Assembly (NCBI GenBank): GCA_016930515.1
Contig: JAFGGO010000093.1
Coordinates: forward strand, 1 to 38,563
Direction: 5' to 3'
DNA: 38,563 nt
Origin: Promethearchaeota archaeon
GTDB lineage: Archaea; Asgardarchaeota; Lokiarchaeia; Sigyniarchaeales; SOKP01
The notes under the pieces are model-generated. The model was not told the origin of the DNA. It saw nothing but the letters and a program-made list of their open reading frames with translations, and searched no databases. Shown one piece after another: positions 18,762 to 30,643 of this stretch. The position numbers and the translations under genes are program-made. Each line of letters opens with the position of its first letter. Within the stretch, counting starts at the first letter, position 1.

Positions 18762-20279
18762 ATGTTCAAGAAAAATAAAATTAAAACGATTGATAAACCA
18801 GTCGAGCAATGCGCCGTTTTCGGCGTCACATGCGATGATATCGGCTATTCCGTTTCAAAATTGCTTTACGACGGCTTGATCGCTCTTCAACATAGAGGTC
18901 AAGAATCCACGGGTGTTTCTTTATATCACACGGGTGGAAATGGTATTTTTACCTATAAGAAGAAAGGCTTGGTCTCGAAAGTACTTAACAAGAAAAAATT
19001 GTCGCAACTCTGGGGTAATGTGGGTATAGGTCACAATAGATATGCAACCACGGGTTCCACGGAGTTTTCCTCGCATCACTACATCCAACCGTTTCACTTC
19101 AAAAACAACGATATGGAGTTTTCGTTCGCTTTTAACGGGACTATTCCCGTCTACGATAATATCAAACAAAAAATGGACGATATGGGGCGCATCTTTATCA
19201 CCAACACCGATACCGAAGTAATGGCGCAATTAATTGCATCTATCGCTCAAGGTACGGAAGATTGGGTGGAAGTGTTGAAAGTTGCGAGCCATTTTCTAGA
19301 AGGATCCTATTCCTTGATCTTGCTTACCAACGAGGGAGATATTTATGCCATGAGAGACCCGCTTGGTTTCAAGCCTCTTTGCATAGGAGAACTAAAAACT
19401 GAAAAAAGAAACCTTTATTTTATCGCCTCGGAATCGTGTGCAATGGACGCTGTTGGAGGCACGCTAATAAGGGATGTAAAACCTGGGGAAATCGTCCATT
19501 TAAGCCATCAAAAAGACATTCACACCGAGATGATCATCAAGTCGAAAACCACGGCTCGCTGCCAGTTTGAATACGTCTATTTTGCAAGACCCGATTCGAT
19601 CATCGATGGAATATCCGTGGCAAACGCTCGCTTGAATATGGGGATTCATTTGGCAAGAAACGACCCTTTATTGAAAGATCCCGAATTTAAGAAAAACGCC
19701 ATAGTCGTTCCCGTTCCAGATTCTGGCAGAAGTGCCTCCGTTGGATACGCAAAGGAATCTGGCCTCCCCTATGTAGAAGGGTTGATGAAAAATAGGTATG
19801 TTTGGAGAACTTTTATCATGCCAGGACAACTTAAGCGGGATGCCGCCGTCAAGGAAAAGCTCAATCCAATTCGGAGCGTCATCGAAGGTAGAGATGTCGT
19901 TCTCATCGATGATTCCATCGTGCGGGGAACTACTACACGGCAGATAATTTCTCTCATACGGGCTGTTGGTGCGAAATCCGTAAATGTACGAATTAGCTGT
20001 CCGCCCGTCTTAAGCGCCTGCTATATGGGAATAGACTTTCCAACGAGCGATGAACTCATAGCCGGAAAGAGCATACGATTATTTGGAGAAAATTACGTGG
20101 AAGAAATAAGAAAACAAATTGGAGCCGACTCTCTGCTTTACCAAAGACTTGAAGACTTGCTTAGTTCAATTGGGATGACGGAAAATCAACTATGTCTTGC
20201 CTGTTTGACTGGTAGGTATCCCTTGGAACGAATTCAACACCTTGCAGATTCTGAAAACGCCATTAAAATGAACAGATAA
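18762..20279 (+). CDS. purF: Amidophosphoribosyltransferase
   Basis: Propeptide followed by CAVFG; LQHRGQES; GHNRYATTG; CQFEYVYFARPDS; PVPDSG; PRPP motif VVLIDDSIVRGTT; CLAC. Confidence 0.97.
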   Translation: MFKKNKIKTIDKPVEQCAVFGVTCDDIGYSVSKLLYDGLIALQHRGQESTGVSLYHTGGNGIFTYKKKGLVSKVLNKKKLSQLWGNVGIGHNRYATTGSTEFSSHHYIQPFHFKNNDMEFSFAFNGTIPVYDNIKQKMDDMGRIFITNTDTEVMAQLIASIAQGTEDWVEVLKVASHFLEGSYSLILLTNEGDIYAMRDPLGFKPLCIGELKTEKRNLYFIASESCAMDAVGGTLIRDVKPGEIVHLSHQKDIHTEMIIKSKTTARCQFEYVYFARPDSIIDGISVANARLNMGIHLARNDPLLKDPEFKKNAIVVPVPDSGRSASVGYAKESGLPYVEGLMKNRYVWRTFIMPGQLKRDAAVKEKLNPIRSVIEGRDVVLIDDSIVRGTTTRQIISLIRAVGAKSVNVRISCPPVLSACYMGIDFPTSDELIAGKSIRLFGENYVEEIRKQIGADSLLYQRLEDLLSSIGMTENQLCLACLTGRYPLERIQHLADSENAIKMNR

Positions 20280-20434: not shown

Positions 20435-21421
20435 ATGATGTTATTTGGTCATTATCTTGAAGAATTTAACGGAAGACCCGTGAGAGCTTTTATTGAAGAG
20501 TTTATAAAAAACAAGAAAGAAATAATAAATCCTGATCTTGTGTATTCCATCTCCACCCACTACGATTACGATGAATACAATTGGATTGATTTATTTTCCA
20601 TATTTTTAAACCTACCTGGTGTGGAGAAAACTACTGCCATAATTATCGGTTGTTGGGAAGAAATTAATCATGCGCCTACTCAGATCGTCGAAGCCCTGGT
20701 TGCTGCAAAAAACAAGTTGCCGGGATTAAGAGCAATCTTTTTTGCAGATATTATCTACGAGGACAACGAGTTGTCGTGGATAAATCAACCTGACCTCACA
20801 CCAATATTAAAAGCGTTTCCAAACTTAGAATACCTTGCGATTCGGGGAAGTAATGATCTTTCTCTTGCGGGAATTGAGCACGATAATTTAAAAACGCTTA
20901 TTATACAGTCGGCAGGCTTGGATCGTTCGGTTGTTAACCAAATAATTGAAGGAAGATTACCCTCTTTAGAACATTTGGAATTATATCTTGGATGCTCAAG
21001 ACAAGGAGCAAATTCTACAGTGAACGATTTTAAAGACCTGTTTTTTGGAAATCTATTTCCAAACTTGAAGTATCTTGGCTTAAGAAATAGCGAAATTGCT
21101 GACGAATTAGCAAAACTCATTGCAAACGCTCCTATTCTAAATTTAATTGAGGCGCTGGACTTATCGCTCGGAACATTATCTGACAAAGGATTGGAATCAT
21201 TGCTAAACAGTTCCTTGTTAAAAAACCTGAAAAAATTGGATATATATCACCATTACTGTTCGAGCAAATTGCTCCAACGCTTGAATCAATTCGCAAAAAC
21301 AACTGGAATTGATGTTGATTTCAGCGAAAAACTCTTGGAAGAACGCGATGAAGATATCGATTGGGACGACGATTACGAAGAAGACGAGGGCAGCTATCGA
21401 TATGTAGCTTACATGGAATAG
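20435..21421 (+). CDS. STM4015-like LRR-type protein, copy 1
   Basis: TTAIIIGCW, LRAIFFADI..E..ELSWINQ.DL.PIL.AFPNLE.L.IRG, LEHLELYLG, LKYLGLRNSEI.D, LDLSLGTLSD.G; acidic tail ending YRYVAYME. Confidence 0.85.
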   Translation: MMLFGHYLEEFNGRPVRAFIEEFIKNKKEIINPDLVYSISTHYDYDEYNWIDLFSIFLNLPGVEKTTAIIIGCWEEINHAPTQIVEALVAAKNKLPGLRAIFFADIIYEDNELSWINQPDLTPILKAFPNLEYLAIRGSNDLSLAGIEHDNLKTLIIQSAGLDRSVVNQIIEGRLPSLEHLELYLGCSRQGANSTVNDFKDLFFGNLFPNLKYLGLRNSEIADELAKLIANAPILNLIEALDLSLGTLSDKGLESLLNSSLLKNLKKLDIYHHYCSSKLLQRLNQFAKTTGIDVDFSEKLLEERDEDIDWDDDYEEDEGSYRYVAYME

Positions 21422-21529
21422 TCCTGTTTTTTTGCGAAATTTGAAAACCTTTATTCATACTTTTATGTGATAATTCTTTATCTTTCTAAAATATTAAAAA
21501 TATACTAATTAGGTTGAAGATGATATAAT

Positions 21530-22480
21530 TTGACAAATGACGATCACCTTAAAAACTTCGACGGGAAACCCGTAATAGATTTTTACGAGGATTTTGTAGA
21601 GAAGAAAAACGATACTATAAATCAAAATGTTGTATATAGGATATCAATGCCTTATGAAGACGACGAAAAATATAACTGGAACGACTTATTTTCGATGTTC
21701 ATAAACGCTCCCGGTTCGGAAACCACGACAGCATTAATCGTTGGGATGTGGGGTGGATGGGAGGACATGACCGACACGTCTCCTGACAATGTCGTGGAAG
21801 CACTCGTTGCTGCTAGAAACAAACTTCCGAAGCTTAAATCGCTATTTATTGGCGATATCATAGTCGAAGAATGCGAAGTCTCCTGGTTGATTCAGACAGA
21901 CCTTACGCCTATACTCAAAGCTTATCCAAACCTTGAATACTTCGCCATCAGGGGAAGTAACGAGCTCTCGCTCGAGGGCATGGCCTCTGATAGTTTAAAA
22001 TCGTTGATTTTACAAAGTGGTGGGCTGGATCGAGATATCGTGCAAGAAGTTCTAAATGGTAATCTTCCTAACTTAGAGCACCTCGAGTTATGGCTTGGGA
22101 GTCAATACTATGGCGAAATTACCAATGTGGGCGACTTCAAGGATTTAATTGCGGGTCACCTGTTTCCAAAATTAAAATATTTGGGCTTGAGAAATAGCGA
22201 GATTACTGACGACTTGGCAAGAGAATTAGCAAACTCTCCTATCTTGGAAAGACTTGAAATTCTAGATTTATCGTATGGGACTTTAGGGGACAAGGGTGCC
22301 GAAGCCTTGCTTAACAGCCCCTTGATCAAGAATCTCAAGGAATTGGATCTGCATTGGCATTATTGTTCGAAAGCGATGATGGAAAAATTTGAAAAACTTG
22401 GCCTAGAGAAAGGTATTAACATTGACTTGGAAGAAGAACAAGGTGAAGAAGAAGAGCGCTATATTGTTATGAGCGAATAA
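21530..22480 (+). CDS. STM4015-like LRR-type protein, copy 2
   Basis: Colinear tandem paralog of 20435-21421 (LKSLFIGDIIVEECEVSWLIQ, LEHLELWLG, LKYLGLRNSEITD); ends EEEERYIVMSE. Confidence 0.85.
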   Translation: MTNDDHLKNFDGKPVIDFYEDFVEKKNDTINQNVVYRISMPYEDDEKYNWNDLFSMFINAPGSETTTALIVGMWGGWEDMTDTSPDNVVEALVAARNKLPKLKSLFIGDIIVEECEVSWLIQTDLTPILKAYPNLEYFAIRGSNELSLEGMASDSLKSLILQSGGLDRDIVQEVLNGNLPNLEHLELWLGSQYYGEITNVGDFKDLIAGHLFPKLKYLGLRNSEITDDLARELANSPILERLEILDLSYGTLGDKGAEALLNSPLIKNLKELDLHWHYCSKAMMEKFEKLGLEKGINIDLEEEQGEEEERYIVMSE

Positions 22481-22564
22481 TATCTCACTTTTTTGCCAAA
22501 CGATTTTTTATTATTAAATATGTGTTTATTACAAAATATAAGCATTTACAGAATAAATTAGATC

Positions 22565-22690
22565 ATGGTATTCAATAAACGATTAGTTGAATTTGATGGA
22601 AAGCCCTAATGGACTTTTTAGAAGAATTTATTGTAAAAAAAAGGAAATTGTTAATGTGATGTATATCGCTATGTTGCAGTAAGCAAATAA
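22565..22690 (+). pseudogene. Internally deleted third STM4015-like copy (N-terminus joined to C-terminus)
   Basis: With two 1-nt frameshifts it reads MVFNKRLVEFDGKP/MDFLEEFIVKK/EIVN, compared with HLKNFDGKPVIDFYEDFVEKK and EFNGRPVRAFIEEFIKNKKEIIN. It then runs straight into DVYRYVAVSK*, compared with SYRYVAYME*. Confidence 0.8.
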
Positions 22691-22760
22691 CCAACTTAAA
22701 GAAACCAAATTTCACTGAGAATATTTTTTTTCATTACACCATTTTTTAATTTGTACTTGT

Positions 22761-23948
22761 ATGGATACAATGTCCCTTCTAGAGAAAAATTTTAAAAATT
22801 TAAATGTCAAAGATGGAATCGTCCTAATTGGAAATCCAAATGGTTGGAGAGTGAATTACTTTCAAAAAACCTTAGCTCAATTGAGACTTCCTCCCGCTAC
22901 AGTCGTGAACTATAAATCTTTGATTAAGAAAGAAGTACATTTATCCGAATATGTGCGAGAGGGAACAATAGTCAAGATAGAATCTCCTGACCAAGATTTT
23001 AAAGTAGAAAAATTATTGTTAGAGCTTGGAGCGCCTTTTATTCAAAACGAATATAATCATCTAACCATCGAAGAAATCAGATCGTTAAAATTTGATTTAG
23101 GAAGGATTTTACCTCAACGCCAGTGGTATTTGGGTTTTTTAATTTTACTTGAAACCATTGAACAGCAATTAAATGGTTGCGAACAACATTACTTGCTTAA
23201 TCATCCTTCAGATATCGGTTTGATGTTTGATAAATGCAATTGTTATAAAAAGTTATCAGAACACGAGATAAAGATGCCTATATCCTTAGATCCTGTGAAT
23301 TCTTACGACGATCTTGTGGAAAAGATGGATGAAAAGGGACTTAATCGAGCTTTTATCAAATTATCTAATGGATCTAGCGCTTCGGGTGTCGTTGCGTATA
23401 GAAGAATAGGAACTAAAGAATTAGCAATAACTACTTCAGAAATGGTTCGAAATGGTAGTTCGTTAAAGTTTTATAATTCAAAACGGATGCAAGTATATAG
23501 AGAAACCAATGACATAAGGGATCTTATTAATTTTATCTGCAGTAATAAGGCTCACGCTGAAGAATGGTTACCGAAAGCAGCAATAAAAGATCACCTTTTC
23601 GATTTGAGGGTAGTGGTCATTGATGGAAAAGCTGAGCACATCGTTCCACGCTTGAGTCGAAATCCCATGACAAATCTTCATCTCTCGAACAAGCGAGGAC
23701 GTTTTGAGGATGTCTTAAAAAGGTTAGGCATGGATGAATGGTCCTCTGCCCTTGTAACTTGCGAAAAAGCAATGTCGTGTTTTCCAAAATCATTTTATGC
23801 TGGTGTCGATCTTGTAATTATTGCCGGTTTTAGAGATCACGCCGTGCTTGAGATGAACGCTTTTGGGGACCTATTGATTGATCCAATTACCGATACTGTT
23901 TTGCCTTACTTCCAAGAAATAAAAAAATTATTCCGAATAGAGTGCTAA
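22761..23948 (+). CDS. STM4014-like ATP-grasp protein
   Basis: IGNP..RV..FQ, MFDK, FIKLSNGSSASGV, EEWLPK, FDLRVVVI, PMTNLHL.N.RG, GVDL, VLEMNAFGDLL (RimK-like ATP-grasp motifs). Confidence 0.85.
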   Translation: MDTMSLLEKNFKNLNVKDGIVLIGNPNGWRVNYFQKTLAQLRLPPATVVNYKSLIKKEVHLSEYVREGTIVKIESPDQDFKVEKLLLELGAPFIQNEYNHLTIEEIRSLKFDLGRILPQRQWYLGFLILLETIEQQLNGCEQHYLLNHPSDIGLMFDKCNCYKKLSEHEIKMPISLDPVNSYDDLVEKMDEKGLNRAFIKLSNGSSASGVVAYRRIGTKELAITTSEMVRNGSSLKFYNSKRMQVYRETNDIRDLINFICSNKAHAEEWLPKAAIKDHLFDLRVVVIDGKAEHIVPRLSRNPMTNLHLSNKRGRFEDVLKRLGMDEWSSALVTCEKAMSCFPKSFYAGVDLVIIAGFRDHAVLEMNAFGDLLIDPITDTVLPYFQEIKKLFRIEC

Positions 23949-24763
23949 TTTTGATAAACGCTAAGGAAATTATGGGGATATATGATATATTATTCGTGAC
24001 CGTGGATAGCTTGCGCTACGATGTTGCTTGTAATTGCTTGAAAAAGGGAACAACGCCTAACCTTGAACGGCTCCTCCCAGAAAATCAATGGGAAAAGAGA
24101 CACACGCCTGGAAATTACACGCTTCCAGCACATCTTTCATTTTTTTCGGGCTTTTTTCCAACACCAGAAAATAGGCCTAAGGCTTCTCGATTATTTGCCG
24201 TGAAATTTCCCCAAAATGACACCGTAAATTCGAAAACATTTGTATTCGATGCGCCAAATATCGTAAAAGGTTTTGAAAAACAGGGTTATCACACGATCTG
24301 CGTTGGCGGTGTAGGTTTTTTTAACAAGAGTAATTATCTTGGTAATATCCTCCCAAGTTTTTTTCTTGAAAGTCATTGGAAACCGCCCTTGGGAACAACT
24401 AGTCGAACTTCTACCGAAAAGCAAATTGATGTTGCGATCAAGAGCCTGACTCCGCTTGAACCTTCAAAAAGAGCATTTCTCTTTATGAATGTCTCCGCTA
24501 CTCACAGACCAAGTCATATTTTCCTTGAGGGTGCGAGACGAGACTCTATTGAAACCCAAGAAGCCGCATTGGAATATGTAGACTTTCATCTTCAAAGACT
24601 TTTTGAGTTCATGGGAAAAAGAGCGCCTACGCTCGTCATAATCTGCTCAGATCACGGAGAAGCATTTGGTGAAGACGGATATTTTGGCCACAGGCTCTCT
24701 CATCCGGTCGTTTGGGATGTGCCATACGCAGAATTCCTTTTAGGGAGGGATAAAAAAGAGTGA
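23942..24763 (+). CDS. STM4013-like alkaline-phosphatase/sulfatase-superfamily metalloenzyme
   Basis: ILFVTVDSLRYD, HTPGNYTLPAH, NVSATHRP, EYVD, CSDHGEAFGEDGYFGHR. Confidence 0.87.
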   Translation: MLILINAKEIMGIYDILFVTVDSLRYDVACNCLKKGTTPNLERLLPENQWEKRHTPGNYTLPAHLSFFSGFFPTPENRPKASRLFAVKFPQNDTVNSKTFVFDAPNIVKGFEKQGYHTICVGGVGFFNKSNYLGNILPSFFLESHWKPPLGTTSRTSTEKQIDVAIKSLTPLEPSKRAFLFMNVSATHRPSHIFLEGARRDSIETQEAALEYVDFHLQRLFEFMGKRAPTLVIICSDHGEAFGEDGYFGHRLSHPVVWDVPYAEFLLGRDKKE

Positions 24764-26097
24764 ATCAAACATCTGATGTAAGCTCGATCGAAGAACTATT
24801 TGTTAACGAACCATTCAAATCGTACGCTTACGCTTATCCTCATAAAACTACATATAGAGCATTTTCCCCTCCACTTCAATTAAAGGACCTATGGTCAAAA
24901 GAGAGAATAGACGCTTTGTTCTTATATTTTCACATTCCTTTTTGTGAAACTAAATGTTCCTATTGTAACCTATTTAGCACTTCTAAACAAATAAATGGAC
25001 TCGTTTCGAAATACTTTGACACATTGCGTCGTCAATCAGAAATCATAATGGATATTTTAAAAAACGCCAAGATCGCCACGATGGCCATTGGTGGTGGTAC
25101 TCCAACTCTCATATCGTCTTCTCAATTACATCAGTTATTCGACATTGCTAAAGAGATTTTTAAAGTAGATCCCCTTAAAGTACCCATATCCGTTGAAACA
25201 TCTCCTAAAACAATAAGTCCTGAAAAAATCTCTATATTAAAAGAGAGAGGCGTGGAAAGAATAAGCGTTGGTGTTCAGACGTTCAACGAGGCTGAAACAA
25301 GAGCACTTGGCCGCTTGCAATCAAAGGAGGAGGTTTCGAATGCTCTAGATTTGATAAAATCTCACGATTTCAATCGATTAAACATTGACTTGATATATGG
25401 CATTCCCGAGCAAACCTTGAGTTCTTTTGTGCGATCGATTGAAAGCGCTTTAATTTACAATCCTGAAGAAATTTACCTTTATCCGCTTTATATTAGGCCA
25501 TTGACTCCGTTAGGGAATAAAAAGAACGACAATGAGGACAAAAGAATTTTATTTTATCGAAAGGGTCGACAGATCCTCTTGGAGCATGGATATATGCAGC
25601 ATTCAATGAGAATGTTTCGATTAAAAACAAAAGGATCCCCTTCTTGTTCAAGCTACTCCTGTCAAGAGGATGGGATGATTGGAATGGGATGTGGATCGCG
25701 CTCGTATACGAAAAAAGTTCATTATTCTGAGGAATACGCAGTTAAACAAGAGTCTATTTTAAAAATTTTAACAAATTATATAAAAAAACCTAATAAAATG
25801 TTCCAACAAGCATTGCACGGCATAAAACTCACACTAGAGGATCAAAAAAGGCGTTACGTGTTGAAATCGATTTTAAAAGAACCGGGTTTGAGCTTAAACG
25901 ATTTTCACAAGTTCTTTAATATCGACGCTCTTGATGCAATGCCAGAACTCTTGCAATTAATGAAACAGGGTTATATTGACCAAGTTGGAAATTACTTAAA
26001 AATGACAGAACAGGGTTTGGAACGCTCTGATGTGATCAGTTATTGGTTATATTCTGATACCGTAAAGCAACTAATGGTGAACTACGAGCCATCATGA
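24760..26097 (+). CDS. STM4012-like HemN/class C-type radical SAM protein
   Basis: YAYAYPHKTTY, LYFHIPFCETKCSYCNLF (CxxxCxxC), GGGTPT, RISVGVQTF, NIDLIYGIP.Q. GTGA overlap with the upstream gene. Confidence 0.9.
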   Translation: MNQTSDVSSIEELFVNEPFKSYAYAYPHKTTYRAFSPPLQLKDLWSKERIDALFLYFHIPFCETKCSYCNLFSTSKQINGLVSKYFDTLRRQSEIIMDILKNAKIATMAIGGGTPTLISSSQLHQLFDIAKEIFKVDPLKVPISVETSPKTISPEKISILKERGVERISVGVQTFNEAETRALGRLQSKEEVSNALDLIKSHDFNRLNIDLIYGIPEQTLSSFVRSIESALIYNPEEIYLYPLYIRPLTPLGNKKNDNEDKRILFYRKGRQILLEHGYMQHSMRMFRLKTKGSPSCSSYSCQEDGMIGMGCGSRSYTKKVHYSEEYAVKQESILKILTNYIKKPNKMFQQALHGIKLTLEDQKRRYVLKSILKEPGLSLNDFHKFFNIDALDAMPELLQLMKQGYIDQVGNYLKMTEQGLERSDVISYWLYSDTVKQLMVNYEPS

Positions 26098-26966
26098 ACT
26101 TGTCCATCTTGTATCGGGGTATTTTGAAAAGCTGTAATTACAAGTGTTCTTATTGTCCATTCCATCCAAAAGACGAAAATGAGTCCACGAGAAAAAAAGA
26201 TCGGGAAATGCTAAAACGATTCGTGGGATGGATTAAAGAACATGAAGAACACGACTTTTCAGTCTTTTTCACTCCTTCGGGAGAGGCACTCATTAAGCCG
26301 AGATATCAAGAAGCTCTAATCAAATTGAGTAATTGTTCTCACGTGAAGAAAGTAGTCATACAAACAAATCTTTCTTGCGATTTAGATTGGTTAAACCGAT
26401 TAAATCGAGAACGCGTGGCGTTTTGGACCACGTTTCATCCGCAGAAAGCATTGATTTCGGATTTCATAAATAAATGTCACCAACTAACGAATTTAAAAAT
26501 TAAGTATAGCGTGGGTATTGTTGGCTTGAAAGAACATTACCGCGATATTGAACGATTGAGAAACGAACTTCTTCCAGAAATATATCTGTGGATTAACGCT
26601 TATAAAGATGTACCGCAATATTACTCTGCTCATGAAGTTGAGTTTTTAACGAATATCGATCCTTATTTTTCAGTGAACAACGCTTTGTACGAAAGTCGAG
26701 GACGATCCTGCAAGGCGGGAAAAAATGTGATTTCTGTTGACGGATACGGGCGTGTCTGGCCCTGTAATTTCGCTCGAAGGTCAATGGGCAACATTTATAA
26801 ATCAGACTTAGAGGATATTTTAAGAGAACAACCGTGTGAAAACGAATTCTGCCATTGCCATATTGGTTATGTGCATTTGGATTACCTTGAACTTGAAAAA
26901 GTGTTTGGAGAGGGTATTTTAGAAAGAATACCAAAATCGTTTTCTTGGTCAAAACCACCAATTTAG
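26094..26966 (+). CDS. STM4011-like radical SAM protein with C-terminal auxiliary Cys cluster
   Basis: ILYRG.L.SCNYKCSYCPF, FTP.GEAL, QTNLS, WINAYK, C.AG...VWPCNF...C....CHCHIGYVH. ATGA overlap. Confidence 0.88.
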   Translation: MNLSILYRGILKSCNYKCSYCPFHPKDENESTRKKDREMLKRFVGWIKEHEEHDFSVFFTPSGEALIKPRYQEALIKLSNCSHVKKVVIQTNLSCDLDWLNRLNRERVAFWTTFHPQKALISDFINKCHQLTNLKIKYSVGIVGLKEHYRDIERLRNELLPEIYLWINAYKDVPQYYSAHEVEFLTNIDPYFSVNNALYESRGRSCKAGKNVISVDGYGRVWPCNFARRSMGNIYKSDLEDILREQPCENEFCHCHIGYVHLDYLELEKVFGEGILERIPKSFSWSKPPI

Positions 26967-27113
26967 AATGAAAATCAGAACTTTCTCTTCCTCTAACAGT
27001 TTTATTTTTATCAAGAATATTTTAAAAAAAGTTCATTTTTCTACCATATACTTTTATAAAGTATCGTTATATTTGATAAAATACCGAATTATAAAATTAG
27101 AATTGATGATATT

Positions 27114-27410
27114 ATGTGGCGACATGGAGATGTTATAATAGAAAAAATTAAAAAACTTCCCGAAGGGTTATCAAAAAAGAAAACTCACATACTCGTGAAA
27201 GGAGAAATCACGGGACACGCACATAGATTCCAAGATCCTCGTTCAGTACAACTTTGGGAAGACAATGGTGCCTTATTCTTCGAAGTTCTAGAACCAAGCG
27301 CTTCATTAATACACGAAGAACACAACACGATTGAATTTAAAAAAGGAACTTATCTCGTAAAAATTCAAAGGGAATATACACCAAAAGAAATTGTAAGAAT
27401 ACGGGATTAA
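27114..27410 (+). CDS. Small His-rich conserved protein (RHGDV...GE.TGHAH...HEEH...QREY)
   Basis: 98-aa ORF with ATG start and clustered His motifs; a type of protein I recall occurring next to DUF6745 genes. Confidence 0.8.
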   Translation: MWRHGDVIIEKIKKLPEGLSKKKTHILVKGEITGHAHRFQDPRSVQLWEDNGALFFEVLEPSASLIHEEHNTIEFKKGTYLVKIQREYTPKEIVRIRD

Positions 27411-27446
27411 AACCTTCAATAATTATTTTTTATCACGGGGAAATAA

Positions 27447-28460
27447 ATGAAAACTAATAAATATAAGAAGATTCCATCTTCAGAAGCAAAAAGTCTAATT
27501 ATTGAGGAAACAACTTTAAAAGGGTTCGAAGTCGACGAGTTTCTCGACCTGCGAAAAACTAATATAAAACGACTTCCCGAAGATTTAAAAGCCCGGCGCA
27601 TAGACGCAAGCGATTGCGAAAATTTAAAAACCCTCCCTCAAGGTCTTGAGTGTTATGAATTGATATTGCACAATTGTCCACTTGAAGAAATTCATTCAGA
27701 CATTACGGTAAAATTCAAATTAGACCTTTCCAATTGTTCTCAATTAAAATCTCTACCGGAAAACCTTTCGGTCGGATCTTTAGTACTTCGGAATTGCGGT
27801 TCACTAAAAAAACTTCCCGAAGGATTGACTGTTAATTTCCTAGATGTTTCGAATTGTACATTCTCGGAATGGCCTGAGAACATTAATGTTGAATTTGGGA
27901 ATTTCATTGCACGAGATTGCGAAAACATTACTACATTACCTGCTTCTCTAAATAACATCACGCAATTAGATGTTTCTAACTGTGTCATGCTTTCGAGCAT
28001 TCCTGAAGGTGTTAAAGCCTCAGCTTGGATTGATCTTGCAAGAACACGAATCACCGGTCTCCCTAATTCGTTAAAGAAAGCAAATTTAAGATGGAGGGGT
28101 GTGCCCATTACTCATAGGATTGCCTTCCAACCCGAAACCATTACTTCTGAAGAAATCTTGAAAGAAGAGAATGTGGAGTTGAGGCGGGTCATGATAGAAA
28201 AGATGGGTTATCATACTTTTATCAAGGAAGCAAATGCCAAATTAATCCATGAAGATACGGATCCTGGAGGCCCCCGAATGCTTTACAAAATTGATCTTAA
28301 AGAGGACGAGCCACTCGTATGCTTGTCAGTGAATTGTCCTTCAACTGGAAGGAATTACATCATACGAGTACCACCAGATATGAAATCGTGCCACCAAGCT
28401 GCAGCTTGGATTGCTGGATACGACGATCCAAAAAAATACAAACCAAAAATCGAGACTTGA
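27447..28460 (+). CDS. LRR-like repeat protein with C-terminal DUF6745-like domain
   Basis: Repeats L.L.NC..L..LPE.L.V; C-terminal WRGV.I, I.KEENVELRRVMIE.MG, V.V.CPSTGR.Y..RVPP....C.QAAAW. Confidence 0.8.
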   Translation: MKTNKYKKIPSSEAKSLIIEETTLKGFEVDEFLDLRKTNIKRLPEDLKARRIDASDCENLKTLPQGLECYELILHNCPLEEIHSDITVKFKLDLSNCSQLKSLPENLSVGSLVLRNCGSLKKLPEGLTVNFLDVSNCTFSEWPENINVEFGNFIARDCENITTLPASLNNITQLDVSNCVMLSSIPEGVKASAWIDLARTRITGLPNSLKKANLRWRGVPITHRIAFQPETITSEEILKEENVELRRVMIEKMGYHTFIKEANAKLIHEDTDPGGPRMLYKIDLKEDEPLVCLSVNCPSTGRNYIIRVPPDMKSCHQAAAWIAGYDDPKKYKPKIET

Positions 28461-29928
28461 GTTGAATATAAAAGTGGTAAAAAAAGCTAATAATATCGAT
28501 AATAATAATCTAGATTCATCTCCTATTAAAAAGTTGGAAGATGGAGAATCAATAGAAGTTAAGAGCAAAAATAGCAATAATGTTTATAAAATTCGATATA
28601 CAGGGGGTGTCTACTCGTGCACGTGTCCTGCTTGGCAGTTTCAGAACAAACCCATTGAAACGAGGACTTGCAAGCACATAAAGGAATTCAGGGGAGAGGC
28701 TGCAGAAAAGAAAAGGACGGGATTTTCAAATTCAAAAACTTCGAAATCATCAAAAGCTTCGAAATCTTCTAAAAAATCAACTAAATCAAGTTCTCCAGGG
28801 GATAAATCACAATCAGAGATATCTGTAATGCTTGCACACAATTACCGGGATTACAATATTGATCCGACCGGCTGGTTAATGAGCGAAAAATTAGATGGTG
28901 TAAGAGGATTATGGGACGGAAACGAGTTTTACTCAAGACAAGGAAAAATATTTTATGTGCCTGATTGGTTTAAAGAAGGTTTACCATCCTTTGGCCTTGA
29001 TGGTGAATTTTTCATTGGTAGAAAGCGCTTCGAGGATACATCATCCATTGTTCGACGACAGGATAAATCAGAACATTGGAAGCAGGTTAAATACCTCGTC
29101 TTTGATTCTCCCGACTTGGATGGTGTATTTACCGAGCGCTTCGAGACCGTTAAAAATTGGTTTGCAAGCAATAATTGCGAACAAGTAAATATTGTAGAAC
29201 AAATTCCTTGTAAGGGTGATAAGCACCTTTGGGAAGAGTTTGAGAAAATCATATCTATTGGTGGAGAAGGCTTGATGGTAAGGAAACCGGATGACGAGTA
29301 TTTCGACGGTCGGACGAACAATATACTAAAGCTCAAATCCGTATATGACGCAGAAGCGTGCGTGAAAGGGTATACTAATGGGACGGGTAAATACAAGGGA
29401 TTGATTGGGTCATTAATCGTTGAAACACCAGAAGGAAAGGAGTTCAAGCTTGGATCAGGCCTTTCGGATCAAGATAGAGAAAATCCTCCAAAGATCGGAT
29501 CTGTTGTAACATATAAATACACCGAACTCACAAAATACGGCATACCACGGCATCCTCGATATTTCCGGGTGAGAAATGATGTGGAATGGGAAGATATAAT
29601 CAATTTAAAAACTCCTGAACGCCCCATTTCGAATATTACAATTAATAACAAAAAAACCCTTTCTAACAAAAAAAAATGTGATACCTCAAAGGAAAAAAAG
29701 AATTTTGATCTTCCTATAAAAAACACCTATTATTACGAGTTAGTAGACGAGAACTCGTCAAAATTTTGGGAGATAACAATCGATAAATCCTCCTTTACGA
29801 CTCGATACGGTAAACTAGGTTCCAATGGTACATCAACAAAAAAACAATGGTCATCTCCAGAGGAAGCGGAGATCAAGGCTAAGAAACTTCGAGAAACAAA
29901 GGAACAAAAAGGTTATCTTCTAAAGTAA
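28411..29928 (+). CDS. ATP-dependent DNA ligase (minimal bacterial/phage type) with N-terminal SWIM Zn finger and C-terminal WGR domain; true start probably TTG 28462 or GTG 28474
   Basis: SWIM YSCTCPAW...CKHI; ligase motif I SEKLDGVR, LDGEF, FD.P, GEGLM, LKLK; OB domain GKYKGLIG...GSGLSD..R...PRHPRY; WGR-like SSKFWEITI...TRYGKLG.NG...KGY. Confidence 0.92.
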   Translation: MLDTTIQKNTNQKSRLELNIKVVKKANNIDNNNLDSSPIKKLEDGESIEVKSKNSNNVYKIRYTGGVYSCTCPAWQFQNKPIETRTCKHIKEFRGEAAEKKRTGFSNSKTSKSSKASKSSKKSTKSSSPGDKSQSEISVMLAHNYRDYNIDPTGWLMSEKLDGVRGLWDGNEFYSRQGKIFYVPDWFKEGLPSFGLDGEFFIGRKRFEDTSSIVRRQDKSEHWKQVKYLVFDSPDLDGVFTERFETVKNWFASNNCEQVNIVEQIPCKGDKHLWEEFEKIISIGGEGLMVRKPDDEYFDGRTNNILKLKSVYDAEACVKGYTNGTGKYKGLIGSLIVETPEGKEFKLGSGLSDQDRENPPKIGSVVTYKYTELTKYGIPRHPRYFRVRNDVEWEDIINLKTPERPISNITINNKKTLSNKKKCDTSKEKKNFDLPIKNTYYYELVDENSSKFWEITIDKSSFTTRYGKLGSNGTSTKKQWSSPEEAEIKAKKLRETKEQKGYLLK

Positions 29929-30013: not shown

Positions 30014-30643
30014 TTACTTTCTGCAGAATTCTATAAAATTCTCGTAAATTTTAATACCGTGCTTACTCGATTTTTCTGGGTGAAATTGAGTTGCGATTAT
30101 ATTTTTATGCCCTACGATTGAGCTATATTCGACTTCTCCATATTGTGTAATACCGATGGAAATCCTCGTATCTTTAGGAACCACGTGATAGCTATGGACG
30201 AAATAAAAATAACTGTCGTCTGGGATGTTTTGAACTAAAAAATGGTCTTTATCTACTAACCGTACGCTATTCCAACCGATCTGTGGTATTTTATCTACCT
30301 TACTCTTTTCGAAAAGCACGACCTCTCCGTTGAAAACTCCAAGTCCTTCGTGAAGTCCCATCTCATGACTGATCGAAAATAATAATTGTTGGCCAAGACA
30401 AATTCCAAGTAATGGTCTTCTTTCTTGTACAAGCTCGTTAATAACCGGAACGAGTCCTTTTTCGTTTAGGTGTTTCATGGCGTCTCCAAACGCACCTACT
30501 CCAGGTAAAATCACGCCATCTGCTTCTAAAATTTGTATAGGTTCATCTGTAATGATCGATTCTACGCCCACGTGTTTCAAGCACTTGTAGATGCTTTTTA
30601 AATTGCCCATTTCGTAATCAATAATTGCAATGGTAAAAGTCAC
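30014..30643 (-). CDS. hisH: Imidazole glycerol phosphate synthase glutaminase subunit
   Basis: IIDYEMGNLKS, ILPGVGAF, LGICLGQQLL, YFVHSY, QFHPEKS. Confidence 0.96.
   Translation of the reverse strand: MTFTIAIIDYEMGNLKSIYKCLKHVGVESIITDEPIQILEADGVILPGVGAFGDAMKHLNEKGLVPVINELVQERRPLLGICLGQQLLFSISHEMGLHEGLGVFNGEVVLFEKSKVDKIPQIGWNSVRLVDKDHFLVQNIPDDSYFYFVHSYHVVPKDTRISIGITQYGEVEYSSIVGHKNIIATQFHPEKSSKHGIKIYENFIEFCRK

Follow-up and report, generated by a model that had tools for sequence, protein, structure and literature searches.

The ATP-grasp enzymes RimK and tubulin-tyrosine ligase (TTL) extend the C-terminal Glu of a protein, ribosomal protein S6 and α-tubulin, respectively, and the RimK-family ligases CofF and MptN add Glu to a terminal carboxylate. 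In the pathways to pyrroloquinoline quinone (PQQ; PqqA/PqqE) and mycofactocin (MftA/MftC), radical S-adenosylmethionine (SAM) enzymes of the SPASM type act on C-terminal Tyr/Glu- or Val-Tyr-containing peptides, and Lig E of proteobacteria is a minimal two-domain DNA ligase without extra DNA-binding domains. Likenesses to all of these meet in the locus described here, a 9.5-kb island of nine intact, co-oriented open reading frames (ORFs; 20435–29928) bounded by purF and hisH on the Promethearchaeota contig JAFGGO010000093.1, whose whole analysed stretch of 38,563 nucleotides we call the window. An earlier reading made from the letters alone (the sequence-only reading) had placed nine such genes in this interval, and we find them at the same coordinates. 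The first six belong to the protein families STM4011 (NF038073), STM4012 (NF006067), STM4013 (NF038075), STM4014 (NF038074) and STM4015 (NF038076) of NCBIfam, names that derive from Salmonella Typhimurium LT2 loci. The literature that we searched for these families, for DUF6745 and for combinations of WGR, SWIM, radical SAM, ATP-grasp and leucine-rich repeat (LRR) proteins held no paper that assigns STM4011–STM4015 a function, only gene-list mentions and Leptospira LRR surveys, in keeping with the sequence-only reading, which named no function for the cassette.

The island resembles STM4011–4015 cassettes elsewhere in that all five families score above their cut-offs, stand in the usual order and include overlapping enzyme genes. 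It differs from them in its Asgard host, in a duplicated STM4015 gene accompanied by the relic of another copy, and in its extension by a small protein (p98), an LRR protein with a DUF6745 domain (LRR-DUF6745) and a DNA ligase with a SWIM-type finger and a WGR domain (SWIM-ligase-WGR). As in the RimK-S6 and TTL-tubulin pairs, a predicted ATP-grasp gene (STM4014) lies beside a family (STM4015) whose C-terminal Glu is invariant and preceded by acidic residues, and enzyme and tail co-diverge; unlike in those pairs, the enzyme lies outside the RimK, CofF and MptN equivalogs and is coupled to two radical SAM enzymes and one of the alkaline-phosphatase fold, so that its product is likely to be more than a poly-Glu tail. 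With the PQQ and mycofactocin pathways the cassette shares a SPASM-type radical SAM enzyme and a conserved C-terminal motif with Tyr and Glu, whereas the proposed substrate is a folded LRR protein of 300 residues instead of a short peptide, and the cassette lacks a peptidase, a PqqD-like chaperone and a PqqB/C-like enzyme, having a HemN-like radical SAM enzyme and an ATP-grasp enzyme instead.

Among solved structures, PDB 2RA8 (a structural-genomics entry, Bacteroides fragilis Q64V53) joins two of the island's parts: its residues 8–66 match the window's WGR domain and its residues 73–346 match the STM4015 profile (E 7.9e-74). There WGR and STM4015 form one chain, whereas in the window the WGR domain is on the ligase and STM4015 is separate. 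The LRR of the LRR-DUF6745 protein resembles those of type III effectors, but against the LRR-plus-enzyme effectors XopL, IpaH/SspH/SlrP and XopAC all scores fall far below the family cut-offs; the C-terminal domain is DUF6745 and not NEL, XL-box or Fic, and the likeness implies neither a signal for secretion nor a type III system.

Taken together, our analysis points to the STM4015 LRR proteins, through their Glu-ending tails, as the substrate of the cassette enzymes, and to the three accessory genes as separable add-on modules, not core parts. In the literature searched, the extension of the cassette to three modules, its fusions with WGR and ligase domains and the invariance of the terminal Glu appear to be undescribed.

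The STM4015 tail and its proposed link to STM4014

Comparison was made with 80 bacterial cassette loci taken with 10-kb flanks and searched with the window's proteins, and the counts below are over 81 loci. STM4015 ends in Glu in 101 of the 105 ORFs found in 81 loci plus the window. This residue closes a tail in which an acidic linker is followed by the conserved motif R-Y-x4-E, and the variant tail of the Gemmata type, E-Y-L-x2-G-D-x-E, is also Glu-terminated. STM4015 is moreover the only component present in several copies: the window has two as well as a relic, and Nostocales loci of this sample have as many as 5. The relic retains an N-terminal fragment, M-V-F-N-K-R-L-V-E-F-D-G-K-P, which is cut short by a stop; a different frame encodes the tail typical of the family, D-V-Y-R-Y-V-A-V-S-K, which also runs into a stop and has Lys, not Glu, as its last residue.

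STM4015 diverges together with STM4014 in two separate clades. Scores for STM4015/STM4014 are 56/132 bits in Gemmataceae, 119/190 in Myxococcota and 230/311 elsewhere, while those of STM4013, STM4012 and STM4011 are unchanged, and mirror-tree partial correlations of STM4015 are 0.36 with STM4014 and 0.34 with STM4011 but negative with STM4013 and STM4012. The only named similarity of STM4014 is its weak match to CofF and MptN. In complex prediction, STM4014 with ATP and residues 255–316 of STM4015 scored 0.54 against 0.14 for the best control, a predicted contact in the 'weak support' band of the scale. In calibration, 58 out of 80 solved complexes passed the mark and so did 2 out of 110 mismatched pairs; the passes at or below 0.60 comprise just 7 of these solved complexes but both mismatches. 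The runs agreed in at least 50% of contacts, with a partner pLDDT of at least 35. The Glu tail, the multiple copies of STM4015, the likeness of STM4014 to Glu-adding ligases, the co-divergence, the complex score and the intact motifs of the enzymes described below together lead us to propose that STM4014 ligates a group onto this tail.

Tandem STM4015 paralogues of 400–470 residues were seen in Nostocales and relatives (L032, L051, L059, L060, L064, L072, L084 and others). These cyanobacterial proteins have an additional N-terminal region of 100–200 residues, with sub-threshold matches to HEAT_2 in one ORF and DUF5691 in another, and tails of the form R-Y-(C/S/Y/W)-x-(V/L)-x-E.

The cassette enzymes

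The identification of an STM4015–STM4011 cassette, made at first from the sequence alone, is borne out by profile searches in which the first six genes all exceed the NCBIfam curated cut-offs (Table 1). The five families are clustered and co-oriented, and the same order is found in most of the 81 loci. The enzyme genes overlap by 4–7 nt (23942/23948, 24760/24763 and 26094/26097), as had been noted from the sequence, and the GTG start of STM4013 at 23942 agrees with the N-terminal length of its homologues.

Table 1. Genes of the island and of its two borders in the window, with the matches that identify them
Feature	Position	Strand	Assignment
purF	18762..20279	+	native left flank; TIGR01134, 438 bits
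STM4015 copy a, LRR	20435..21421	+	NF038076 306.8 bits, cut-off 275; tail ...RYVAYME
STM4015 copy b, LRR	21530..22480	+	NF038076 332.8 bits, cut-off 275; tail ...RYIVMSE
STM4015 third-copy relic	22565..22690	+	read from sequence
STM4014, predicted ATP-grasp	22761..23948	+	NF038074 371 bits, cut-off 175
STM4013, alkaline-phosphatase superfamily	23942..24763	+	NF038075 374 bits, cut-off 250; Pfam Sulfatase, Phosphodiest
STM4012, HemN-like radical SAM	24760..26097	+	NF006067 551.5 bits, cut-off 380; Radical_SAM + HemN_C
STM4011, small radical SAM, SPASM-type Cys-rich C-terminus	26094..26966	+	NF038073 379 bits, cut-off 200
p98, 98 aa, His/Glu-rich	27114..27410	+	no Pfam/NCBIfam match; phrog_27831
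LRR (type-III-effector-like) + C-terminal DUF6745, 337 aa	27447..28460	+	Pfam DUF6745
SWIM-ligase-WGR	28462..29928 (ORF opens 28411)	+	PRK09125 327.5 bits, cut-off 200; DNA_ligase_OB_2; WGR
hisH	30014..30643	-	native right flank; TIGR01855, 220.8 bits

All four enzymes look active, to judge from the invariance of their catalytic motifs. STM4014 has invariant K158, K200, E364 and N366, the last two within an E-x-N motif. It scores 26.8 bits against CofF (cut-off 300) and 15.4 against MptN (cut-off 350), outside both equivalogs, has no Pfam match, and retrieves no solved structure by sequence in a profile search; 'RimK-like' therefore denotes a distant likeness. In STM4013 the residues D22, T60, H64, D237-H238, H250 and H254 are invariant, and the nucleophile position is held by an invariant Thr within a G-N-(F/Y)-T-x-x-A-H motif. 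The sequence-only reading had called this protein a phosphotransferase-like enzyme; the gene is real, but the label is better replaced by alkaline-phosphatase superfamily with a Thr in the nucleophile position, and the active-site layout resembles, as far as sequence tells, that of nucleotide pyrophosphatase and phosphoethanolamine transferase enzymes.

STM4012 shows C-x3-C-x2-C in translation and lies below the cut-offs of characterised members, with 178 bits for HemW (205), 163 for HemN (325) and 159 for ChuW (400), so that, with its Radical_SAM and HemN_C matches, it belongs just to the HemN-like clade at large. STM4011 matches Pfam Radical_SAM (32.9 bits, cut-off 29.5) and SPASM (26.2, cut-off 21.5) and has two sets of invariant Cys, C14, C18 and C21 and then C206, C224, C248, C253 and C255; its nearest named relatives are the peptide- and protein-modifying SPASM enzymes PapB and anaerobic sulfatase maturase. 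The latter likeness gave rise to the idea that STM4013 is a formylglycine sulfatase matured by STM4011, which we reject because an invariant Thr stands in the nucleophile position instead of the Cys/Ser-x-P-x-R motif.

Accessory genes and their linkage to the cassette

That the cassette continues into a His-rich protein, an LRR-DUF6745 protein and a SWIM-ligase-WGR protein had been proposed from the sequence and is upheld here, DUF6745, the ligase and WGR scoring above their cut-offs and the SWIM-type ligands being invariant. The motifs R-x-G-D, G-E-x-T-G-H-x-H, H-E-E-H and Q-R-E-Y are invariant in an alignment of p98 homologues. The protein is predicted to be all-beta (model pLDDT 81), the model showing no clear fold relative among solved structures, and p98 always lies beside, or is fused to, DUF6745. 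In its neighbour, DUF6745 (PF20530) is matched at 80.5 bits (cut-off 27) over profile positions 82–206, the N-terminal part being replaced by LRR. A fold search with the whole protein returned LRR matches throughout, a feature search with residues 210–337 gave one low-scoring LRR cluster only, and no PDB sequence relative of the DUF6745 domain was found.

The third accessory protein comprises a SWIM-type finger, a Ser/Lys linker, an adenylation and OB core of the LigE type and a WGR domain (PF05406; 49.5 bits, cut-off 22). Its finger ligands C53, C55, C70 and H72 (C-x-C...C-x-H) are invariant in 7 homologues, although Pfam SWIM is not reported at E ≤ 0.01. The core agrees with Lig E (PRK09125, 327 bits) and matches the Lig E structures 4d05 (E 5.5e-61), 8u6x and 6gdr, with motif I KxDG kept and K143 and the other motifs invariant. 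Unlike the bare core of Lig E, it bears the N-terminal finger and the C-terminal WGR domain and is linked or fused to the STM cassette. The protein probably binds and seals DNA nicks. Its ORF opens at TTG 28411; candidate true starts are TTG 28462 and GTG 28474, just past the DUF6745 stop at 28458–28460, and translation probably begins at one of these two, matching the gene call on the sister contig introduced below.

The cassette itself is widespread. At least 532 STM4011 loci were confirmed among at least 599 matching stretches of a genome collection holding one genome per species, and at E ≤ 1e-20 the matches amount to 2952 clusters of STM4011 proteins; the range covers Cyanobacteria, Planctomycetota, Chloroflexota, Myxococcota, Acidobacteriota and Salmonella. 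The pair of p98 and DUF6745 occurs in 17 of the 81 cassette loci, always on the same strand, at 21–100 bp outside the cassette in 12 and within the cassette span in 3, and in several arrangements in Chloroflexota, Acidobacteriota, Planctomycetota, Abditibacteriota and Melainabacteria. A WGR protein is likewise present in 17 of the 81, with WGR fused to the N-terminus of the STM4015 domain in 11 ORFs from 9 loci, and a SWIM-ligase-WGR(-WGR) gene follows STM4011 directly in 6 loci, its product 41–42% identical to that of the window; in Obscuribacterales the partner of the cassette is a SWIM-LigE ligase-WGR protein. Approached in reverse, from relatives of p98, two long contigs again show the pair together with the cassette. 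When every ORF in the neighbourhoods was clustered, no recurrent family emerged beyond p98, DUF6745 and the WGR-linked proteins.

The island has a counterpart on a sister Asgard contig (GCA_016839425.1; L019), which has the order STM4012-STM4011-p98-DUF6745-ligase as in the window, with identities of 78% for the ligase, 84% for STM4011 and 91% for p98. In this contig SWIM-ligase-WGR-WGR-STM4015 forms a single ORF of 870+ residues. In some phage-type proteins p98 is fused to DUF6745. The sequence-only reading had staked its case on such co-occurrence in other genomes, and the recurrence of the pair and of WGR and ligase genes beside the cassette in several bacterial phyla, some of them fused, sustains it.

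The pair also travels in phages: all 10 phage records that carry one member carry the other too. In Microcystis phage Ma-LMM01 (NC_008562.1, 154027–155558), gp175 (p98-like) and gp174 (DUF6745 C-terminal domain) lie directly upstream of the uracil-DNA glycosylase gp173, inside a replication module with clamp loader, DNA polymerase and exonuclease. Both proteins of the pair resemble STM4015 in being conserved at the extreme C-terminus: all 24 p98 homologues from the protein database end in Asp while four stand-alone Asgard forms do not, and a C-terminal E-T is invariant in 17 of 17 aligned LRR-DUF6745 proteins.

Some cassette loci have further neighbours. In a Planctomycetaceae metagenome-assembled genome (L089, 3–4271), a cassette also bearing p98/DUF6745 adjoins a gene for a 1423-residue protein that combines an SF1 helicase (AAA_11/AAA_12), an MTES_1575 restriction-endonuclease fold and a C-terminal WGR domain. 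A complete bpMoxR/bpX0–bpX4 system adjoins the cassette in L104 and L105 (13467–20366), where p98/DUF6745 stands between STM4011 and STM4014. On a 3.1-Mb contig (L102, 2509–8595), a decaying cassette with frameshifted STM4011, STM4012 and STM4014 and with p98/DUF6745 lies near genes for nSTAND1, HicA, ADP-ribosylglycohydrolase, a Tpt1-like protein (PTS_2-RNA) and NUDIX, a set with a flavour of NAD and ADP-ribose.

A tentative pathway and its alternatives

Tentatively, and at a little short of an even balance of probability, we read the cassette as a pathway for the C-terminal modification of proteins whose LRR products work with DNA-directed partners. STM4015 would be the substrate, its tail bound by STM4014, which would activate the terminal Glu carboxylate and ligate a group onto the tail; STM4011, STM4012 and STM4013 would then elaborate the product of STM4014. 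The matured LRR proteins would act with nucleic-acid-directed partners such as the WGR fusions and the SWIM-LigE ligase-WGR protein, and p98 with LRR-DUF6745 would be a mobile two-protein add-on, phage-borne as well. The WGR and SWIM domains, the LigE core and the helicase-nuclease partner point, by their homology, to functions directed at DNA. What we observe is which genes are present, that they were inserted, how often they recur as neighbours or fused, that the tail ends in an invariant Glu and that the catalytic motifs are intact; that the tail is the substrate, which group is added and any role at DNA are what we infer. A more specific version appears doubtful when taken whole, namely an as yet undescribed post-translational modification on the free C-terminal Glu of a dedicated family of cytoplasmic LRR proteins, made by a RimK/TTL-like ligation and then by radical SAM and phosphoryl-transfer reactions. 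The modified proteins would form, with WGR, SWIM and LigE partners, a new pathway for the sensing and repair of DNA breaks or foreign DNA, which would be common among bacteria with large genomes and would have reached an Asgard archaeon from them.

For a widespread and catalogued cassette this provides a hypothesis that can be tested at the bench, that LRR proteins are substrates of an ATP-grasp and two radical SAM enzymes, and it draws attention to the repeated recruitment by the cassette of DNA-binding and DNA-sealing partners and of a phage-borne gene pair. If true, it would bring to light a way of modifying protein C-termini and a function of bacterial LRR and WGR proteins that are both new.

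Several points weigh against this pathway. The chemistry of the putative modification is a guess. The co-divergence and the mirror-tree figures come from related genomes, which are not independent samples, and are only suggestive. In the weak band of the complex score, where the 0.54 of STM4014 with the tail lies, a pass is wrong in the majority of cases if the interaction was not already a likely one. Of the 81 cassette loci, 49 carry none of the accessory genes in the DNA examined, and these genes also occur apart from the cassette: four Asgard relatives and ten phage records have the p98/DUF6745 pair by itself, and the Asgard genome G168 has a solitary SWIM-ligase-WGR gene; given this separate occurrence, the ligase may be an independent repair enzyme merely travelling with the cassette.

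The sequence-only reading had suggested a conflict or DNA-damage system, in which LRR, WGR and SWIM domains would sense foreign or damaged nucleic acid, the enzymes would modify a nucleotide or nucleic acid or make a signal, the ligase would reseal the DNA, and STM4015 would be a sensor or regulator. The DNA-directed partners (WGR, SWIM, the LigE ligase and the helicase-restriction endonuclease-WGR protein of L089) would fit such a system, as would the horizontal acquisition of the island, the phage-borne p98/DUF6745 beside a uracil-DNA glycosylase in the Ma-LMM01 replication module, the defence-like neighbours of L102 and of the bpMoxR-adjacent loci, and weak viperin-like radical SAM matches. 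However, PADLOC-DB 2.0 recognised in the nine proteins only generic radical SAM models (PDC-M51A, E 5.9e-13; pVip, E 5e-6 or weaker), and among 110 flanking genes of 43 bacterial loci, Pfam and PADLOC gave single defence-family matches only, none recurring, the commonest families being WD40 and TPR, a scan that had no matched background set and so argues only weakly against defence. The STM4011 tree, moreover, largely follows bacterial taxonomy, unlike those of typical mobile defence genes, and a conflict system leaves the C-terminal Glu, the paralogue arrays and the co-divergence of STM4014 and STM4015 unexplained. A conflict or defence role is thus possible but not supported, and we consider the system so described unlikely.

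Still harder to maintain, and in our estimate distinctly unlikely, is the synthesis of a small molecule or cofactor, for which the STM4015 C-terminus would serve as carrier while the ATP-grasp enzyme adds to it, the radical SAM enzymes tailor the adduct and the product is released. PQQ, mycofactocin and the peptide-scaffold ('pearlin') pathways offer analogies. Tyr is conserved in the tail and Glu ends it, the pair of residues from which PQQ derives in PqqA/PqqE; there is tight coupling among the SPASM enzyme, the other radical SAM enzyme and the ATP-grasp enzyme; and STM4015 co-varies with STM4014 and STM4011. Yet no peptidase or other releasing enzyme recurred in or beside the cassette when neighbouring ORFs were clustered, and an LRR carrier of 300–450 residues whose body is conserved and which is often fused to WGR or ligase domains is hard to square with a disposable scaffold.

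A chance gathering of three unrelated elements at a single insertion hot spot, namely the STM cassette, a p98/DUF6745 pair of the phage type and a separate repair ligase, is very improbable, since, although every module exists alone elsewhere, most cassette loci lack the add-ons and 147 nt with a TATA-like box lie between STM4011 and p98, the same combinations recur in at least 5 bacterial phyla at 21–100 bp spacing and in differing arrangements, the gene order is the same in the sister Asgard contig, and fusions join the modules (ligase-WGR-WGR-STM4015 in L019; WGR-STM4015 in the 11 ORFs and PDB 2RA8; p98-DUF6745 of phage type).

Insertion and origin of the island

To its left the island is flanked by purF and a mobA-like gene, to its right by hisH, hisF and hypF. 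Orthologues of purF with 72–92% identity occur in Asgard genomes of the same genus and the same family, and in these relatives hisF-hisH adjoins purF (hisH and purF are ~105 bp apart in G008) with none of the nine genes between; the identities and the purF-hisH synteny support the Asgard host that had been thought probable. STM4011 exceeds its cut-off in one of the 41 relatives searched and, among 400 Asgard genomes from 85 genera, in this genome only, and STM4015, WGR and DUF6745 have no further occurrence in this genome outside the island; a native archaeal ligase of the Lig1 type is encoded on another contig of the same genome. The adjacency of purF and hisH in relatives and the rarity of STM4011 among Asgard genomes mark the block as an acquired island, in agreement with the horizontal acquisition suggested from the sequence, and a bacterial source is most likely. 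The Asgard copy shows cleanly how an island of several modules, most likely of bacterial origin, can be set into a conserved archaeal neighbourhood.

In a quick tree of STM4011, which mostly tracks bacterial taxonomy, the branch that carries the two Asgard sequences is long (1.76), and the phylogeny supplies no donor: the Asgard pair has no well-supported bacterial sister, grouping at an SH-aLRT of 84 with one Acidobacteriota row. The G+C content of the island is similar to that of the surrounding DNA; together with the long branch and the lack of a supported sister this indicates that the transfer was not recent, and it leaves the donor not nameable. No direct repeats or att-like sites were found flanking the island. 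A scan for bacterial promoters and terminators gave signals no higher than shuffled sequence would, its model being bacterial and not meaningful for an archaeon. The gap of 147 nt with a TATA-like box that separates STM4011 from p98 makes at least two transcription units likely.

In two relatives (G005, L120 7036–8046; G007, L122 7765–9192), a second, divergent purF-like gene with 30–32% identity stands between purF and hisH, the same site that the island occupies here. The solitary ligase of G168 (L129 10313–11812, contig C3) has 499 residues, is 46% identical to the window's protein and lies among genes for an E1 dehydrogenase, a gamma-glutamyltranspeptidase, a Ras-like GTPase and an MFS transporter, with no cassette or p98/DUF6745 nearby. 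In the window's own ligase gene, an imperfect tandem duplication of 18 bp (28732–28767) falls in the Ser/Lys linker between SWIM finger and ligase core, and the length of this linker differs from that in the sister contig.

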